This document shows positions 1,878 through 24,298 of a DNA stretch of 64,000 bases, in pieces. The stretch spans positions 1 to 64,000 of IMG/VR virus record IMGVR_UViG_3300037067_011000, one strand, 5' to 3'. The stretch's first letter is position 1. Each line of letters begins with the position of its first letter. A program made the position numbers and the translations under genes. This stretch comes from a virus (lineage: Duplodnaviria; Caudoviricetes). The notes under the pieces are model-generated. The model searched no databases, was not told the origin of the DNA, and worked only from the letters and a program-made list of their open reading frames with translations.

Positions 1878-3334
1878 ATAATCTTTGACATTTTCCAGAA
1901 ATTCATTTTAAATTTTTCAAAATTTCTGCTTGCAGACAAATGTTTGTAGAAAACCAAATAAATTTGGAGATTCTGAGGGAGGTTGGGCAGGGTTCACACC
2001 GGTTCCCATCTGTCAACTGACCCAACCTCCTCCTGATCCCTGATCTATTACTACAGGTACACAACTATCATATTACTGTTATACTGTCTTATTTGCCCTT
2101 GTATGGGTGGGGTGGGGGAGAGGTTATTTTTCACTGTCATATTGTCTATTTTACATAATATTAATTATAGGACAGTAGGGGCACTATGTTTTATAACATA
2201 CTTTGTTCTGATCCTTACTTTATTGTTGTTCCCCAGCCCTTCTTTATTTGTTTATCTAATTACAAGTCCCAAGCTGCATACGTGCAGGATACGGGAAAAT
2301 TTTCAGAAATCTGAATCTATAATTATAACACAATACTGGAAATAGTACACTTATACTATATACAGGGTACCTACTACATTATACTACATATTCAGATAAT
2401 AATTTATTAGTTAACTTATTGAGTAGTTTTTTTACTCATTATTGGGTAATTTATTTACTCATCTTATTTATAATCATTATAAATTACATATTTCTTTTAA
2501 AGTTTCTTTAAATATGTATTGTTATGTCAATTATTAATTATACATTTACATAACAATTAATACATACTCATTATGAAAGCAATACTACATTTTTTACCCT
2601 TTGCACCCCTTTACATTTTTTGCCTGGTTGCACTCTTTTTATTAATCCAGTCCTTTGCTCAAATGTTTGTTAACCCATCTAAAAAATAACCTATTATGAA
2701 AACAGAAAATAAACCTCTTGCATACTACCATTACAACACCCCAAAAGTAACTATTAACTGGAACAATCATAAACAAATGGGTTCTTATTTTTCTGCATTA
2801 TCTGCATTAAATAAAATTTGTGAATTAAATACACATCCACAAAAATCTGATATTTGGGAAATTTGCACACCAGATGGAGTTTTGAACGTTTCAAATCTTG
2901 TAAATAATAACCTATTATGAAAACATTAGAAAAATCCCGCTTCATTGCATTTTTTGCAATTACTTCAATTCCTATTTTATTAACCTTTATAATATCTTCC
3001 TTATTATGAAAACAGTAACTAAAAAAACAATCAGAAAACCGGCCAAAACTAAGAAGCTCCTAAATTATGGTATCATAAAAAATACCTTTGACTCTTTTCA
3101 CACTTACCAAAGAAACAATTAAAAAACTAAGAAAATGAAAACATTTGTCACATTTGTAAACGGTTACCAAGAGGTAGCAAACATGGCTGAAGCCATTGTT
3201 GTAGCAAAAGAAAACGACAATACTAATTTTATTGTTGAGGTAGATGAGTCAAAATTACCTGAAGGTTTAAAAGCCGAAGAATGCTTATATGCCGAAGAAG
3301 ATGGGGCAATAAAAAGAACAACATTGTAAAATAC

Positions 3335-3377
3335 TTAGCAGTACCGGGGCGATAATCTCAAAACCGCGTACTGCTAA
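3335..3377 (+). terminator. Intergenic hairpin (possible terminator or processing site)
   Basis: TTAGCAGTAC (3335-3344) and GTACTGCTAA (3368-3377) form a perfect inverted repeat followed by an AT-rich tract. Confidence 0.45.
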
Positions 3378-3411
3378 ATATTAATTTTATTAACTAAAAA
3401 CTATTAAGAAA

Positions 3412-3775
3412 ATGAAAACCAACGCCACAATTGATCAATTAAATGATGCTTTGAACTTCATAAATATGAGATTCAAAAACAATGTACAATTTTAAGGAAA
3501 TAAAACAAATCTCCTCTAAACGTGTTAATTTTACTTTGAGGGTGAAAAGTTCTTCAGGTCCTGGAGCAAAAATAGGTTATTCAGGTCGCAAAACTATTTC
3601 CGCTTGTTGGCATGTACATGGATATTTCTTTGAATACCTGTTTTTATCATATCCTGGAATATACATAATAAGTCAGGGTAAAAAAATGACAAGTAATTCA
3701 GATAATTGGCAAGATCAGAATATTGGATCAATAATGCAACCTTTATATTTTTCTGAAGCTTGTAATTGTAACTAA
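3412..3775 (+). CDS. Hypothetical phage protein interrupted by a +1 frameshift at TTT-TAA (3490-3495)
   Basis: ATG at 3412 (MKTNATIDQLNDALNF...) stops at 3495; the +1 frame continues KEIKQISSKRVNFTLRV...ACWHVHG...NWQDQNIGS to 3775. Confidence 0.5.
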
Positions 3776-4283
3776 CTTTTGCCGGTTCAAAGTCCGGTTT
3801 AATAATGATGACTACAGGATATACAAAACTATTCTGTAGTAAATTAACCAAAAGTTTACAAACCAAAAAAGAAATTAAACGTTAACCAAATATTTACTAT
3901 TATGAAAACAAAAACTATTATTTTATACCAATTTGCTGAATTATCAGAAGATAAAAGCAAATAACAAAATTCTGCAAACTTTGTCAGAATTGGAAACTGT
4001 GTTAAGAAAACTTTATGATCCTTTTGATTATACTTGTTTAAATGCAAAAACAAGCAGATACCTTAATTTATAAAGACAGAAAAGGAAATGAAATTGTAAT
4101 GGAGGAATTTTATGAGGATCTTCAACATTTTATTGACATAAATGAAACAATGTTAATAAAAGATTCAGCAGAAAATTTTGAAACAATTAAAAAGTTAAGA
4201 AAATACCATGTTGATAAATCAAAATGCTTAAATAACTGAAATACAAACAACTAAAAATACAAACAATTTAAACTGCTAAGAAA

Positions 4284-4715
4284 ATGAAAATATATAGAGC
4301 CATACAAACAGACAACATAGATATTAATAACGTCGGTTGTCATTGGACATGGAATCGTGAAGTTGCAGAAAACGTACATAAGGTTGTTTATGGCGGTTGT
4401 TCAGATGACTTTGACGAAACAGCAGTGGTGAAGATTATTGAGGCAGAAATAGACCAAAATGCGACAGACTTTGAAGCAACAATGTATTCAATATGTGAAT
4501 ACCCTGCCGAATTTGAAATCGTATTGAAAAAAAATGTTCAAATAGGTGAATATAATACAGGTAGCAGGGTTGATGATTGGGTTAATTCTATTGAGAGAAG
4601 CGAAGATGAAACTATTGGAAACGTAATACATCAAATTACGTACAGAAACACAAATAGAGAAGCATTTGCAACGAGCCTCAATATGATGCGTGAATTATTT
4701 CAACTTGAATATTAA
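4284..4715 (+). CDS. Hypothetical protein, possible ADP-ribosyltransferase-like fold
   Basis: IYRAI ... GCHWTWNREVA ... AEFEIVL spacing resembles the R-S-E ART motifs. Confidence 0.35.
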   Translation: MKIYRAIQTDNIDINNVGCHWTWNREVAENVHKVVYGGCSDDFDETAVVKIIEAEIDQNATDFEATMYSICEYPAEFEIVLKKNVQIGEYNTGSRVDDWVNSIERSEDETIGNVIHQITYRNTNREAFATSLNMMRELFQLEY

Positions 4716-5537
4716 CTAAAAACTATTAAGATGAAAACCTCAAAAAGAACTTTTAGATTTGCTCAAAAGAACTGTAAACGAAAAAGCAAATGAAGCAACT
4801 GTTTTAAGATACAAATATCCTGAACCGGAAAACCAAAAATTTTATTTTGGCAGGTATATGGCATTTTCTGAAATGTATTCTTTATTATGTAACCTTGAAA
4901 AACATATAAAATGAGACACAAATGTACTTTAGAGTCTATTGCATTAACTACTTTAAAACCTGGTAATTGTTTTTATTCTCACAAACAGGATAAAGATTTA
5001 ACTGCAATTGCTTCATACTACAAAAAGAAAATAAAAACTGAAAGGTTAATGTTGATCAATCCACAAAAAACAACAATTGAAAAAATAACTAAAATCACAA
5101 TATTATGACAAATATTAAAGATGTTAATGGGTATAGCTGTTATTGGATTGAAAAAGGTATTTATTCTTTCTCAAAGAAAACCCCCACAAGTCCCACAAGG
5201 TATTCTACAATAGAGTGTGAAGAAGAACAGCTAACTAATGGGGACATAGAATTTATGACCTTAAATGGTCTTACATTAACCAAAGCACGTAAAAAAGCTT
5301 ATCAGAAGAAATTTACGAACAACATTAAAAAATAATATTATGAAACTACTCAATTTAATCGTATCAATTACTTTTCTGACACTTTCACTTATTTGTGGTG
5401 CATCGGCCCTGATTCTGAAAAGAATTGATTTAGGAGGCCTTTCCTGCATTTGTGGGGCAATTTCTTATGTAGCCTACAAAGATTTTGAAAATCCTGAACA
5501 AATTTAATTTTTATTAATCACATAAAAAACTTAAAAA

Positions 5538-19175: not shown

Positions 19176-20195
19176 ATGAAAATTAACAAAACAGACTTAC
19201 AAAATGCTTTGGAGAGGGTTAAGCCAGGGTTGAGTAGTAAAGAAACTATTCAACAAAGTACCTCCTTCTGTTTTTTAGAAGGAAATGTAGTAACGTATAA
19301 TGACGAAATATCAATCGCTTCGCCTGTGGAAAATCTGAATATTACAGGTGCAGTACAAGCCACTGAACTCTATCAACTGCTCAAAAAGCTAAAGCAAGAG
19401 GAAATTTCTCTTGAAGTCAGCGAAAATGAGATACTGATAACTTCAGGAAAGACAAAAGCAGGTCTTATACTTCAAACGGAGATAAAGTTACCACTTTCCG
19501 AAGTGGAAAGGAAATCCGAGTGGAAAATCCTTCCAGAAGGATTTAAAGAGGCCTTACGCTTCGTTGTAAGTTCCTGTTCAAAGGATATGTCCAAACCTGT
19601 CCTTACCTGTGTCCACATTAATGCTGTGGGGTTTATAGAGGGTTGTGACAATTACAGGGTGGCACGTTGGATGTTAGAAGGGGAATTTCCGACAGGAACA
19701 TTTTTGATACCTCAAAGTAGTGTCTTGGAACTTCTGAAACTTGAACCTGTTAAGGTAGCACTTGATGGTGGGTGGGTACACTTTATAACAGAGGACAAAA
19801 CCATGATGAGTTGCAGGGTGATTGACGATAAATTTCCAGACACAAGTAAACTACTGAACCAAAGTGGAAATGAAGTAAGTTTGCCTGATGGAATTACAGA
19901 AGTGCTCGATAGAGCAGGGATTTTTGCGAAAAGGGACAGTCAGTTAGACGAGGATATTTCGATTATATTGGACAAGGGAAAAGTCAGGGTTGAAAGCAAA
20001 AGCGAAACAGGGTGGTTCAAGGAGGAGGTCCCCAATGAAATTTATAAAGGTGAGGAGGTTCAGTTTGATATTACTCCAAGTTTGCTGAAAGACATTCTGA
20101 AAGAAACTAATGTTTTCAGTCATTGTGGTAGGATGTTGAAGTTTGAAAGTGGAAATTGGAAATATGTTGTTAGTTTAAGAGGTGGAAAACAATGA
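19176..20195 (+). CDS. dnaN: DNA polymerase sliding clamp (beta-like)
   Basis: 339 aa; SKDMSKPVLTCVHI, EGCDNYRVA, CRVIDDKFPDTSKLL mirror the beta-clamp motifs. Confidence 0.78.
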   Translation: MKINKTDLQNALERVKPGLSSKETIQQSTSFCFLEGNVVTYNDEISIASPVENLNITGAVQATELYQLLKKLKQEEISLEVSENEILITSGKTKAGLILQTEIKLPLSEVERKSEWKILPEGFKEALRFVVSSCSKDMSKPVLTCVHINAVGFIEGCDNYRVARWMLEGEFPTGTFLIPQSSVLELLKLEPVKVALDGGWVHFITEDKTMMSCRVIDDKFPDTSKLLNQSGNEVSLPDGITEVLDRAGIFAKRDSQLDEDISIILDKGKVRVESKSETGWFKEEVPNEIYKGEEVQFDITPSLLKDILKETNVFSHCGRMLKFESGNWKYVVSLRGGKQ

Positions 20196-20812
20196 CACAG
20201 GAAGGGATCTTCTCAAAGACAGAGGTGCAATCTATCAACAGACCTGGTGGTAAAACATTGAGTTGCCATTCTTGCGGATTATATCAAAATTGTAACTCTC
20301 CTTGGATGAAAGTGCAGGGCACCGGCAAGAAGCATATTCTCAACGTGTTTGAGTACCCCCCCTTTGAGGATGATAAAGCAGGAAGAATGTTTCAGAGTAA
20401 ATCAGGCAGGCTTGTAACCAAAACTTTGAAATCCTTGGGTGTAGATATACTTGGGGACTGTTACAATATCCATGCTCTTTCTTGTTTTCCTGATAACAAA
20501 TATACGGCACATAGTGTTGATTGCTGCCGAAAATTTGTATTGAAAGCAATACAGGAACATCAACCTAAAGTGGTGTTACTATTTGGTAACTTACCTTTAC
20601 AGACGGTGATTGGACAAAGGTGGAAAAGGGATTTAGGAGGGATTAACAAGTGGAGAGGTTGGACGATTCCCGACCAGAATTTCCAGTGTTGGATTTGCCC
20701 TGTGTTTAGTCCTGAATATGTGGAAAGGAGTTTTGGGGAGTTTGACAAGATTACCGCAGAGAATACAGTTTGGGTAAATGATTTGAAACAGATAATAAAT
20801 TTAGTGGTATGA
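20192..20812 (+). CDS. Family-4 uracil-DNA-glycosylase-like protein (SPO1 polymerase N-terminal-domain type)
   Basis: CHSCGLYQNC and DCCRKF Fe-S ligands, IQEHQPKVVLLFGNLP, GINKWRG; the catalytic motifs are degenerate. Confidence 0.72.
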   Translation: MTQEGIFSKTEVQSINRPGGKTLSCHSCGLYQNCNSPWMKVQGTGKKHILNVFEYPPFEDDKAGRMFQSKSGRLVTKTLKSLGVDILGDCYNIHALSCFPDNKYTAHSVDCCRKFVLKAIQEHQPKVVLLFGNLPLQTVIGQRWKRDLGGINKWRGWTIPDQNFQCWICPVFSPEYVERSFGEFDKITAENTVWVNDLKQIINLVV

Positions 20813-23367
20813 TAAAACTTCTTCTTGGTGATAGTGCAGACATTTTAAAGACTTTGGAAGATAATTCTGTTGATTCTGTTGTAAGCGATCCCCCAGCGGG
20901 CATCGCCTTCATGGGGCGTTCGTGGGATTCAGATAAAGGTGGTAGAGATTTATGGATAAAATGGCTTAGTGGTATTTTTGTTGAAGTAAAAAGAGTTTTA
21001 AAGCCTGGAGGTCATTGTTTAGTTTGGGCATTGCCCAGAACCTCACATTGGACAGGAGTGGCATTGGAAGATGTGGGGTTTGAGGTGAGGGATTGTGTGT
21101 ATCATGTTTTCGGGTGTTTGTCGGAAGATACAGAAATATTAACAATTAATGGGTGGGAACATTACCATAAAAATATTTGTTTATATCCCGTATTGTGTTA
21201 CCTTTGTGAAGAAAATAGATTTGAATTTCACAAACCAACAAAAAAATACTTCTATGAAAACAAATATCCCGCTTACAGAATACAATCAGATCATACAGAT
21301 CAAATCGTCTCCAGAAATCATCGTGTCCTTGTTGAACGAAGCGGAAGAAAGGAATTTGTTTTTGCCGAAACATTGGAACAGCAAGAGAACATACCCTTTT
21401 TGGAAAGTCTGTCAGATTTGCCAGAAACCCTTTCCAACATACACGAAGGAAAAAGCATTACGAAACAAGACTTGTTCTATCGTATGCAGAGGCATACAAA
21501 TATCCAAAGCAAAAAAAGGAGTTTCTCATGGAAGAACAGCACCTTGGATAAAAGAACCTTGTGCACATTGTGGAAAAATAGTGGAAATGAGGAAGAAACA
21601 ACGCAAGTACAGCAAAAAGGTATATTGCAGTTATTCTTGTCGTGCAAAAGAACACTCCAAACACTTACTTCTTTTTTGTTCAAATGGCAAAGGGAAGAAA
21701 AATCCCAAAAAGGGCATGAAATTAGAGAAAAATCCTGCATGGAAAGGTGGTGTAACATATTTCAAAACACATGGGAATTATGTTGGGGTAAAATATGTCA
21801 GATGTCCAATAGAGTATTTATCTATGGCACGAAAAGATGGGTATGTTATGGAACACCGTCTTATTGTAGCCATGCAGCTTCAACGTCCTTTACTTCGGAC
21901 GGAAACAGTTCATCACATAGATCACAACCCAACGAACAACGATCCTTTAAATCTGATGTTATTCAAAACAAATCAGGAACACAAACTGTACGAGGGACAA
22001 CAGCGACAGTTACAGAAATAGAATATAAAGGAAATGTGTGGTGTGTAGAAGTTCCCACAGGAGCTTTTGTTGCTCGAAGAAATGGAAAAATATTTATTAC
22101 AGGTAATTCTGGCTTTCCGAAAAGTATGAACATTGGGAAAGCTGTGGATGCAATAGGTGGACAATCTTTATCTTGGTTTATAGATTATATTTTAGAAGTT
22201 GCTGATGAAAAAGGTATAAGTAGAAAGGAATTAACAATGTTATTTCCAAGTAAAAATGGAAATCCTACGGGGTGGTTATGGAATAAACAAAAGACACAAG
22301 GGATAACTATTGATCAATTTAATAAAATAAAAACCTTTTTAAATTTACCATTTGAAAATATAGAAGAAACTAAACGAGAAGTTATAGGAAAAGGAAAAGC
22401 AGGTTTAACAGCAGGGAGTATTGCTAACTTTGCAGGGGAAAAAGAATTTGATTTGACCAAAGGCACTTCTGTATTTGAAGGTTGGGGTACAGCACTTAAA
22501 CCTGCTGTTGAATGTTGGTGGTTGGTAAGGAAACCCATAAGTGAAAATACAATAGCAGAAAACGTGTTAAAACATGGTACAGGGGGGTTGAATATTGAAA
22601 TGTGCAGAATCCCTTTACAAGAAACAGGGGAAGATTCTCGTTTAGGAGGGAAGGGTACATGGTCAACTGAAAATGCAGGTTGGGTTGTAAGTGGGTCAAA
22701 AAGAGAAAGGGTTAGTTCATCAGAAAAAGGCAGATTTCCAAGTAATCTTATTCATGATGGTTCAGAAGAAGTCCTTTCATATTTCCCAAATGCAGGGGGT
22801 CAGCAAGGGGATCTTACAAATCATACAAGGGTTATAAAATCTCCAAATGGGATTTGTGGAACACAAACCCCACGTTTTGATGCAATAGCAAGAGAAGAAA
22901 ATGATAAATCAGCAGCAAGATTTTTCTATTGTTCTAAGCCTTCTCCAAGTGAACGTCAGTTTGGTTGTGGTGAAATAGAAGAAAAGTTTGACAGTCCACG
23001 TCCTTGGTGTACAGAAGAAAGTGACAGAGGTAGAATTGCAACAAGAATGGTTTCCCGTACAGGGAAGAACAACCATCCTACGGTAAAATCCATAAAATTA
23101 ATGAGTTACCTCTGTAAATTGATCACTCCCAAAGGCGGGATTATCTTAGATCCTTTCATGGGGAGTGGTAGTACAGGAATTGCTGCAAAAATAAATTCTT
23201 TTAGTTTTATTGGAATTGAGAAAGAAGAACCTTATTTGAAAATTGCAGAAGCAAGAATAAAAGCCCACACAGTTGGAAAAGTAACTGTGCCTAAAGTAAA
23301 AAAGGAAAAAGTGTTAAAAGTAGAATCAAGTAGTGAAACTGTTCAAAATACTTTATTTGAATTATGA
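20809..23367 (+). CDS. N6-adenine/N4-cytosine DNA methyltransferase (beta class) containing an intein
   Basis: DSVVSDPP (motif IV), RVLKPGG, HPTVKSIKLMSYL, ILDPFMGSGSTG (motif I); splicing restores VFG-SGFPKS. Confidence 0.9.
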   Translation: MIKLLLGDSADILKTLEDNSVDSVVSDPPAGIAFMGRSWDSDKGGRDLWIKWLSGIFVEVKRVLKPGGHCLVWALPRTSHWTGVALEDVGFEVRDCVYHVFGCLSEDTEILTINGWEHYHKNICLYPVLCYLCEENRFEFHKPTKKYFYENKYPAYRIQSDHTDQIVSRNHRVLVERSGRKEFVFAETLEQQENIPFLESLSDLPETLSNIHEGKSITKQDLFYRMQRHTNIQSKKRSFSWKNSTLDKRTLCTLWKNSGNEEETTQVQQKGILQLFLSCKRTLQTLTSFLFKWQREEKSQKGHEIREKSCMERWCNIFQNTWELCWGKICQMSNRVFIYGTKRWVCYGTPSYCSHAASTSFTSDGNSSSHRSQPNEQRSFKSDVIQNKSGTQTVRGTTATVTEIEYKGNVWCVEVPTGAFVARRNGKIFITGNSGFPKSMNIGKAVDAIGGQSLSWFIDYILEVADEKGISRKELTMLFPSKNGNPTGWLWNKQKTQGITIDQFNKIKTFLNLPFENIEETKREVIGKGKAGLTAGSIANFAGEKEFDLTKGTSVFEGWGTALKPAVECWWLVRKPISENTIAENVLKHGTGGLNIEMCRIPLQETGEDSRLGGKGTWSTENAGWVVSGSKRERVSSSEKGRFPSNLIHDGSEEVLSYFPNAGGQQGDLTNHTRVIKSPNGICGTQTPRFDAIAREENDKSAARFFYCSKPSPSERQFGCGEIEEKFDSPRPWCTEESDRGRIATRMVSRTGKNNHPTVKSIKLMSYLCKLITPKGGIILDPFMGSGSTGIAAKINSFSFIGIEKEEPYLKIAEARIKAHTVGKVTVPKVKKEKVLKVESSSETVQNTLFEL
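21115..22107 (+). mobile_element. Intein, 331 aa
   Basis: Block A CLSEDTEILTINGW, block B IVSRNHRVLV, block F EIEYKGNVWCVEVPTGAFVARRNG, terminal GN followed by Ser+1. Confidence 0.92.
21254..22021 (+). CDS. HNH homing endonuclease nested in the +1 frame of the intein
   Basis: CQIC, CSIVC, CAHC, CSYSC, NPAWKGG, GYVMEHRL...ETVHHIDHNPTNNDPLNL. The ORF is open from 21149; ATGAAAACA at 21254 matches this phage's usual start context. Confidence 0.82.
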   Translation: MKTNIPLTEYNQIIQIKSSPEIIVSLLNEAEERNLFLPKHWNSKRTYPFWKVCQICQKPFPTYTKEKALRNKTCSIVCRGIQISKAKKGVSHGRTAPWIKEPCAHCGKIVEMRKKQRKYSKKVYCSYSCRAKEHSKHLLLFCSNGKGKKNPKKGMKLEKNPAWKGGVTYFKTHGNYVGVKYVRCPIEYLSMARKDGYVMEHRLIVAMQLQRPLLRTETVHHIDHNPTNNDPLNLMLFKTNQEHKLYEGQQRQLQK

Positions 23368-23714
23368 AAATAGTTTACATAGCACACCCTGTTTCGGGAG
23401 ACATTACAGGAAATCTGAAAAAGATACAAAGTATCATTCGTCAAATTAATCTTTACTACCCTGACATTTTACCTTTTGCACATTATGTAGTGGATTGTTA
23501 TTCTTTGGATGATGACAATCCTATTGAAAGATTAAGAGGTATAAAAAATGATATAGCTTTGTTAAAAGCAGGTTTCGTAAATGAAATGTGGTTGTATGGA
23601 AATAAGATAAGCGAGGGAATGAAAGCTGAAATTAAATTAGCAAAAGAACTTGGTATTCTTGTTTGTCCAAAAACAACAGAAACTATGGAAGAATATATAA
23701 AATATAATCTATGA
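23364..23714 (+). CDS. Nucleoside 2-deoxyribosyltransferase-like fold protein (DUF4406-like)
   Basis: KIVYIAHPVSGD...EMWLYGNKISEGMKAEIKLAKELGI. Confidence 0.65.
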   Translation: MKIVYIAHPVSGDITGNLKKIQSIIRQINLYYPDILPFAHYVVDCYSLDDDNPIERLRGIKNDIALLKAGFVNEMWLYGNKISEGMKAEIKLAKELGILVCPKTTETMEEYIKYNL

Positions 23715-24298
23715 GAGAGTTTCCCATATACAAAGAATCTTCCATTGAAGTCATAGAAGACTTAGAAATTCTAAGGACAATAACTGAACCATTTGCATGG
23801 GACATAGAAACAAATTCTATTAAAAGCCATTCACAGGAAAGTAAGATAATATCAGTTGCTATTTGTGATAGTGAAGAAAGGGTTTTTGTTTTTATGATGC
23901 CTCAGAAGAGAAGTTTGAGGCTTCCACTTGTGGAATTATTAACAAACCCCAACATAGGTAAATATGCACACAATTTAAAATTTGAACATTCTTGGGTTGA
24001 AAGCAAGTTGGGTATAGTTGTTCGGGGATGGCAATTGGATACAATGTTAATGTGTCATTGTGAAGATAATCGTTCAGGGATAACTTCATTAAAATTTCAG
24101 ACATTTGTAAATTTTGGGGTGTTTGATTACAGTTCGGAAATTGAACCTTATTTAAAAGCAAAGGAAGAAAAAAACGCAAATTCTATAAATCATATTGAAG
24201 AATTAATTTCAACAGAATCGGGTAAAGCAAAACTATTAAAATATAATGCACTTGATGCTTTTTTTACTTATAAGTTAGCTAAAAAACAAATGTCATGA
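23711..24298 (+). CDS. Stand-alone 3'-5' exonuclease domain of a family A DNA polymerase
   Basis: ExoI AWDIETN, ExoII AHNLKFE, LDTML, ExoIII YNALDA. Confidence 0.88.
   Translation: MREFPIYKESSIEVIEDLEILRTITEPFAWDIETNSIKSHSQESKIISVAICDSEERVFVFMMPQKRSLRLPLVELLTNPNIGKYAHNLKFEHSWVESKLGIVVRGWQLDTMLMCHCEDNRSGITSLKFQTFVNFGVFDYSSEIEPYLKAKEEKNANSINHIEELISTESGKAKLLKYNALDAFFTYKLAKKQMS

Follow-up and report, generated by a model that had tools for sequence, protein, structure and literature searches.

An HNH endonuclease gene overprinted in the +1 frame of a predicted intein in a phage DNA methyltransferase gene

Can one stretch of phage DNA carry both the interior of an intein and, in another reading frame, a complete gene for a nuclease? 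The question is raised by a locus in the first 64,000 nucleotides (nt) of the Caudoviricetes record IMGVR_UViG_3300037067_011000 of IMG/VR (hereafter, "the window"), where an open reading frame (ORF) for an N6/N4 DNA methyltransferase (methylase) runs straight through a 331-amino-acid (aa) insert. An initial annotation, made from the letters of the window alone, had taken this insert for an intein beginning with Cys1 at 21115, containing splicing blocks B and F and ending at a GN/S junction. It had further noted that the intein frame (frame 0, or host frame) stays open without recognisable motif between the two blocks and that the +1 frame of the same DNA encodes a zinc-finger HNH endonuclease whose stop adjoins the block F region, and it had proposed an overprinted selfish element in which the frame-0 "shadow" peptide is a passive passenger. 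On re-analysis, all the coordinates hold and each of these claims finds support. We conclude, with a probability of roughly 85%, that the locus is a selfish intein/homing-endonuclease element in a phage methylase gene, in which one stretch of DNA specifies two proteins.

The two overlapping frames are the first thing that any explanation has to account for. Elsewhere in the methylase gene, the +1 frame contains 47 stops in about 559 codons, while in the element it is stop-free from 21143 up to a TAG at 22019-22021, 29 codons before the end of the intein. Given the nuclease sequence, a frame-0 stop arises only where a T-ending HNH codon precedes a codon starting with AA, AG or GA. In the HNH core of the window, T-ending codons are found at 0 of 60 such risk positions versus 58 of 150 other positions, and the family as a whole shows the same avoidance, one of the patterns that the initial annotation had suggested looking for among homologues (0 of 3516 at-risk codons versus 2327 of 8914 elsewhere). 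When the HNH codons of the window were shuffled synonymously, the host frame acquired 13.2 stops on average and stayed open in none of 200 shuffles, in agreement with the earlier judgement that an open frame is unlikely by chance; family-wide, it stayed open in 1 of 11,400. The host frame is held open by synonymous codon choice. By the genetic code, this should cost the nuclease nothing, because every NNT codon can be replaced by a synonymous NNC.

The same layout recurs well beyond the window. A scan of viral contigs gave 80 loci (designated by L numbers), on which extein, intein and HNH pieces were placed by tblastn, and 57 of these are distinct intein copies. The HNH frame is +1 relative to the methylase frame in all 80 loci as well as in the uncultured phage LR756508.1 (484 kb), which a protein search of GenBank phages identified and which encodes a 783-aa methylase with an intein and a 294-aa +1 ORF (40% identical). 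All loci for which a host-frame match was obtained keep the host frame open over the full HNH ORF, apart from L065, where the contig terminates within the element; L057 gave no such match. In a protein database search, 1267 homologues of the methylase ORF cover the intein region, and at least 120 protein clusters, the best of these matches, continue in the host frame from one end of the intein to the other.

Canonical HNH inteins carry their nuclease in frame, and one might therefore suspect an artefact in which two compensating assembly indels have displaced an HNH domain that is truly in frame with the intein. We assign this explanation next to no probability, as the +1 layout is shared by 57 distinct intein loci from independent metagenomes, by the GenBank phage and by two close relatives of the window, and as an accidental frame would hold about 13 stops. 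Among proteins longer than 447 aa, in-frame HNH fusions are represented by a single sequence, P0241 (801 aa), which begins at the HNH ATG and continues into intein block F/G and then the C-extein. P0241 does not establish an in-frame lineage: it has the look of a copy of an L046-like locus that has undergone a frameshift, probably by 1 nt.

The product of the +1 frame has two CxxC...CxxxC zinc ribbons plus an HNH_3 motif, the latter matching Pfam at aa 218-241 (about 21905-21976) with 25.1-25.4 bits against a cut-off of 24.8. HNH_3 is matched by 66 of 70 relatives (best E 6.6e-12), and ten PHROG HNH families match the product of the window (best E 2e-16). Four HNH residues (H201, N233, N240 and H243) are invariant, four more (H220, H221, H224 and N229) are at least 90% conserved, and the cysteines of the zinc ribbons are conserved as well. 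An AlphaFold model of the HNH ORF built from the family alignment reached a mean predicted local distance difference test (pLDDT) of 88.9, with helices at 92-98 over aa 1-45. In a comparison for the beta-beta-alpha-metal fold, an exhaustive structural aligner placed I-HmuI (1u3e) as the best match of the nuclease core, with Z 6.0 over 79 aligned residues. Foldseek with the whole multi-domain model gave no match at E<=1e-3, and a profile search of PDB sequences gave weak zinc-finger matches only. In the databases, 826 proteins of about 255-290 aa, called separately, cover about 97% of the HNH ORF.

The two frames are under selection in different parts of the element. Across the 57 intein loci, nucleotide diversity by codon position shows a third-position excess that belongs to the host frame through the exteins and intein aa 1-40; over aa 41-100 all three positions are less diverse and none clearly stands out as the wobble position (0.28/0.20/0.33 by codon position at aa 61-80); at aa 101-300 the wobble tracks the HNH frame, and from aa 301 it follows the host frame again. 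A segment of about 48-50 codons over block B is constrained in both frames. We also computed the ratio of nonsynonymous to synonymous divergence (dN/dS) of the window against its close relatives L083 and L084, which were fetched by identity. In the middle of the intein, the HNH frame gave ratios of 0.11-0.25 and the host frame ratios of 1.2-2.9, the latter being an artefact to be expected where only the other frame is selected. These frame-specific ratios, another of the comparisons suggested at the outset, reveal selection on the HNH frame: the +1 ORF is an HNH gene under purifying selection. It is very improbable that the ORF is an unexpressed, decaying relic and the element now no more than a mini-intein with a long linker, as the low HNH-frame ratio against the close relatives and the full length of the ORF in the window, with all invariant catalytic and zinc-binding residues present, speak against decay.

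Read in frame 0, the same region looks different. Intein aa 145-288 (21547-21978) have a pLDDT below 50 and are predicted to be disordered, lying between two confidently modelled HINT halves. The mid-intein frame-0 product is a passive, disordered "shadow" without protein-level constraint.

On either side of this shadow, the sequence and the predicted fold are those of an intein. Cys1 is encoded by the TGT at 21115, right after the N-extein end VFG, and column C1 is invariant in an alignment of 56 sequences. In the same alignment, the histidine of block B (S66-R-N-H69) is invariant and its S66 at least 90% conserved, Cys310 of block F (VWCV) is invariant, and N331 is at least 90% conserved. 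The intein ends in VWCVEVPTGAFVARRNGKIFITGN, forming the junction FITGN|SGFPKS at 22107|22108 with Ser as the +1 residue. An AlphaFold model based on the family alignment has pLDDT values of at least 87 over aa 1-130 and of 91-95 over aa 290-331, and Foldseek matches it to many solved inteins at probability 1.00 (best E 3.4e-5). Between the window and L083/L084, the splicing blocks have dN/dS of 0.04-0.13. The stretch from the HNH stop to the intein end measures 86-95 nt in most loci. Taken at the level of motifs and model, this is an intein with a predicted HINT fold and its catalytic residues present.

The intein resembles class 3 inteins only in part. Inteins of this class are defined by the lack of a position-1 nucleophile and by a Trp-Cys-Thr triplet at B:12, F:4 and G:5 (PMC5050341). 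In the window, Cys1 is present and B:12 is Val, yet blocks F and G (22036-22107) contain Cys310 at F:4 and Thr329 at G:5, and the best Foldseek match is a class 3 split intein. The splicing chemistry of the window intein may be unusual.

If the nuclease is a separate protein, where does its translation start? The initial annotation had offered two routes, an ATG at 21254 or +1 frameshifting; our analysis favours the ATG and gives little standing to frameshifting as the main route. An ATG lies 52 codons (51-55 with indels) before the first zinc-ribbon Cys in 37 of the 57 loci, corresponding to 21254 in the window. It often stands right after a +1-frame stop, and in many loci the +1 frame opens a few codons earlier. 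The motifs AGGAG or GGAGG occur 4-20 nt upstream of the conserved ATG in 11 of 37 loci, compared with a background of 2.3% in the same genes (P 4e-10, without correction for relatedness). In the phage of the window itself, Shine-Dalgarno sequences precede just 5 of 58 long ORFs and leaders are rich in A (A fraction 0.50); with 0.55 over the 20 nt before 21254, the HNH leader resembles those of other ORFs in the window. The shift to the dual-constraint pattern of diversity begins at this ATG. The nuclease most likely starts at ATG 21254 by separate initiation, to judge from these sequence features, and frameshifting is not needed. Another ATG at 21149, two codons past a +1 stop, was tried as the start and rejected: it is common only to close relatives, many loci have +1 stops between this position and the conserved ATG, and the sequence upstream of 21254 shows pure host-frame wobble.

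A programmed +1 frameshift late in the N-terminal splicing domain would instead yield a fusion of N-extein, N-intein and HNH, and we consider it quite unlikely. A T-rich run (CCC TTT TTG G, 21393-21402) does lie just 5' of the first zinc ribbon, and the 20 of 57 loci that lack the conserved ATG could be read in favour of such a route. The putative shift site, however, has neither a frame-0 stop nor a rare codon, and a shift there would need none of the at least 52 codons before the zinc ribbon over which the +1 frame is open in all full-length intein loci. Frameshifting would also leave unexplained the conserved ATG directly 3' of a stop with Shine-Dalgarno enrichment upstream, the onset of the dual-constraint signature at that ATG, and the confident predicted fold of HNH aa 1-45. 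In relatives without an intein, an ATG precedes the zinc ribbon by 8-15 codons, and one locus, L087, retains the HNH ORF with no host frame to shift from.

At L087 (2766-3798), the HNH ORF (290 aa) is intact while Cys1 is lost, the C-extein is absent, and methylase and intein have decayed, with a host-frame stop at 3705-3707 within the former shadow. On its sequence, L087 is a natural case of a nuclease gene outliving its intein.

Separate initiation from the conserved ATG could be served by a transcript of its own. Promoter-like motifs of the Bacteroidota -33/-7 type lie upstream of the ATG (Table 1), followed by an A-rich leader at 21224-21253. The pattern TTTG-N18-21-TAnnTTTG has three sites on the + strand of the 64-kb window, one of them being that upstream of the HNH ATG. 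The motifs are kept in L083 and L084, and the -38 motif is seen again in several loci of low GC; the promoter-like sequence partly coincides with conserved intein codons. As a lead only, this suggests a dedicated internal promoter for the HNH gene.

The element would thus work as follows. Translation of frame 0 through the whole element would produce a methylase precursor, in which the HINT halves (aa 1 to about 140 and aa 290-331) are predicted to fold around a disordered shadow loop of roughly 150-200 residues and to splice the methylase together at VFG|SGFPKS. A 255-aa zinc-ribbon/HNH_3 endonuclease would be translated from its own ATG within the intein coding sequence, possibly from its own promoter, and would cut or nick methylase alleles that lack the intein, whereupon the whole element would be copied in (homing). 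Intein-less alleles, which the initial annotation had named as something to look for, have counterparts among related methylases in which YGSGFPKS is uninterrupted. Synonymous divergence (dS) of the window from L083/L084 is 0.14-0.31 in the non-overlapped parts of the intein and 0.75-1.2 in the exteins, and family-wide identity is 70-90% in the intein blocks and about 40% in the exteins. The divergence of intein and exteins and the existence of intein-less relatives fit horizontal spread by homing, as far as sequence comparison can indicate.

A different function for the same gene also has to be considered, namely that the +1 ORF has been domesticated and no longer homes, the intein being fixed and the nuclease acting, for example, alongside the methylase in defence, counter-defence or packaging. 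Domestication would suit the age and very wide distribution of the arrangement (> 1000 proteins), the further roles that HNH proteins play in phages (discussed in PMC11855218), and the higher dS of the HNH core compared with the splicing blocks. We nevertheless judge it unlikely, given that related methylases with an uninterrupted ..YGSGFPKS exist, that the intein is far less diverged than the exteins, that an HNH_3/I-HmuI-type architecture with zinc ribbons is typical of homing enzymes, and that the same nuclease lineage also occupies a second, intein-less site in this gene family.

Several observations weigh against the selfish dual-coding element that we propose, or against parts of it. The window intein matches none of the intein models of Pfam or NCBIfam, so that its identification rests on motifs and predicted fold; 22 of 56 intein relatives match an intein-containing model and 9 of 56 match TIGR01445, all weakly. 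Its penultimate residue (block G:6) is Gly330 and not His, a position that is variable in phage inteins, where Gly, Lys or Ser occur (Kelley et al. 2016, PMC5050341). For the nuclease, the HNH_3 score of the window is barely above the cut-off and the structural match to I-HmuI is modest. Intein aa 100-140 are predicted to be ordered though they lie over the first zinc ribbon, and the edge of the passive part is soft for this reason. The 20 loci without the conserved ATG would have their start elsewhere, at an ATG at about -66 to -72 or at TTG/GTG. Finally, the low dS of the intein could partly reflect constraint and not recent transfer.

Related nucleases also occur in the methylase family outside inteins. 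About 17 loci have HNH homologues in the same +1 phase without intein blocks and with YGSGFPKS uninterrupted (L054, L056, L058, L062, L063, L066-L069, L072, L073, L075-L078, L080 and L081; e.g., L077:2953-3429). In these, the HNH/shadow module sits in the variable region of the methylase, 5-25 codons downstream of SGFPKS; a host-frame CxC ... CxxC often flanks the module, and the nuclease ATG is found 8-15 codons before the zinc ribbon. At L071 (2661-3614), an intein-class locus, the +1 ORF is of the short type (169 aa) that is otherwise found in non-intein loci, with its ATG 11 codons before the zinc ribbon. A 997-aa methylase ORF at L085 (2562-5552) contains two hidden nucleases, one being the HNH in +1 of an intein (2998-3798) and the other an HNH in +2 of a ShiLan-type insert after ...ARKP (4172-4825).

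In a maximum-likelihood tree of the HNH cores, intein and non-intein contexts are interleaved, at least 4 context changes being needed; well-supported branches force one change only, and the number and direction of moves are not fixed. The presence of one nuclease lineage both at the G|SGFPKS intein and in the variable loop, and of a related ShiLan-type (+2) nuclease at a third site, is the basis for a further, tentative idea: the HNH gene with its stop-free -1 frame might be a self-contained, frame-tolerant mobile cassette for any tolerant coding spot. We regard this as possible and would not yet rely on it. If true, the methylase family records repeated switches of the cassette between two lifestyles, "spliced out" and "tolerated in the protein", and inteins gain nucleases by cassette invasion rather than by in-frame fusion.

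Out-of-frame endonucleases of inteins and related inserts have been described three times by the Gogarten laboratory (PMC11855218; bioRxiv 10.1101/2025.01.02.630785; bioRxiv 10.64898/2026.09.14.751524). The initial annotation had taken it as established that intein endonucleases are normally in frame; with exceptions published since 2025, the novelty of the locus was overrated. The principle of an out-of-frame intein endonuclease is already published (2025-2026), and the window element is a further example of it. These three papers contain no methylase intein with an HNH_3 gene in its +1 frame.

The closest parallels differ in several details. In actinophage inteins, Gosselin, Arsenault and Gogarten (bioRxiv 10.1101/2025.01.02.630785) reported endonucleases in another frame or on the opposite strand and proposed that a free-standing endonuclease gene had invaded a mini-intein. 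As in the window, these are bona fide inteins whose centre has no recognisable fold, and the endonuclease ORF can overlap on the same strand. In that same-strand arrangement, an endonuclease VII-like gene occupies "frame 3" of TerL, DNA polymerase, minor capsid or ThyX inteins, whereas the window has an HNH_3 nuclease with two zinc ribbons in +1 of an N6_N4 methylase intein, in a family with hundreds of metagenomic members. The actinophage secondary ORFs are also reported to lie mostly outside the splicing domain, while roughly the first 48 codons of the window HNH overlap block B.

The ShiLan domain, a hidden out-of-frame HNH in mycobacteriophage methylases that have no splicing domain there (Arsenault, Gosselin & Gogarten 2025, PMC11855218), belongs to the same methylase family: in phage Mantra, which we checked, gp64 contains YGSGFPKS...GTALKP...ARKP. 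It shares with the window a zinc-finger HNH hidden in the other frame of an open methylase frame, and the ShiLan-type nuclease of Mantra is about 36% identical to the HNH of L078, pointing to distant homology. In ShiLan, however, the insert stays in the protein, after ...ARKP, and the nuclease is in the +2 frame with a GTG start (as checked in Mantra), whereas the window HNH lies in +1 inside a complete intein at G|SGFPKS.

In the cyanobacterial dnaX intein, a LAGLIDADG endonuclease is encoded out of frame (Phillips, DeSimone & Gogarten, bioRxiv 10.64898/2026.09.14.751524). This intein resembles the window element in having the ORF between the splicing halves, an intein frame that is disordered there, a Shine-Dalgarno sequence before the inner start, and frame-dependent dN/dS with an inflated host-frame ratio. 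It differs in that the dnaX case is LAGLIDADG, +2 and in a bacterial chromosomal gene, and the present one HNH, +1 and in phage methylases. Dassa et al. (2009, PMC2677866) described canonical in-frame HNH inteins as well as "fractured genes", in which split inteins flank a free-standing endonuclease gene. The window intein is neither fused to its nuclease nor split, and its two products share DNA and not a polypeptide; by analogy, these systems lend support to a history in which the splicing domain came first and the nuclease invaded later. The mycobacteriophage N6_N4_Mtase inteins DNMT-1/2, in which the penultimate His is often replaced, e.g., by Gly (Kelley et al. 2016, PMC5050341), resemble the window intein in host gene and penultimate residue, and that survey reports no overlapping nuclease ORF.

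With the present element, a very large and well-sampled family joins a class of selfish elements first recognised in 2025. Through stop avoidance, the switch in periodicity and the doubly constrained segment, it offers clean comparative evidence for two proteins sharing DNA, and it supports the route of intein evolution in which a mini-intein is invaded by a free-standing nuclease gene. It is also a warning for annotation, as genes suppressed by gene callers can lie hidden in intein "linkers" and in odd inserts of phage methylases. The family may further be a source of compact HNH enzymes with easily guessed targets, namely the DNA coding for methylase motifs.

Table 1. Positions of the methylase gene, its intein and the overlapping nuclease gene in the window
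Feature	Position	Strand	Description and basis
N6/N4 DNA methyltransferase precursor ORF	20809..23367	+	852 aa, stop included; runs straight through intein
N-extein	20809..21114	+	102 aa, C-terminal end VFG; alignment with L001, tblastn pieces, host-frame wobble
Intein (predicted)	21115..22107	+	frame 0, 331 aa; motifs, invariant columns, AlphaFold, Foldseek, dN/dS
Candidate internal promoter	21176..21223	+	TTTG-N19-TACCTTTG (21176-21206) and second TAnnTTTG TAGATTTG (21216-21223); Bacteroidota-type -33/-7
Putative homing-endonuclease gene	21254..22021	+	frame +1, 255 aa + TAG; helical N-terminus, two zinc ribbons, HNH_3 core
Dual-coded segment	21254..21402	+	HNH aa 1-50 (+1) over intein aa 47-96 including block B
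"Shadow" of intein frame	21403..22018	+	about intein aa 97-301; open, unselected as protein
C-terminal splicing region, blocks F and G	22022..22107	+	starts directly 3' of HNH stop; host-frame wobble back from aa 301
C-extein	22108..23367	+	SGFPKS at start, then variable region, GTALKPA and S-adenosylmethionine (AdoMet) motif DPFMGSGST; translation and alignment

The host gene itself is readily identified (Table 1), matching Pfam PF01555 (N6_N4_Mtase) at E 3.6e-25 in a domain search. At the nucleotide level, a search of GenBank phages yielded no close relative of the methylase gene, the sole match being 146 nt at 71% to a cyanophage methylase. The ORFs that flank the methylase together with the small gene downstream of it (20192-20809 and 23711-24295) match consecutive positions of the DNA polymerase profile phrog_17 (477-621 and 653-825, respectively), from which a DNA polymerase gene appears to have been split around this insertion.

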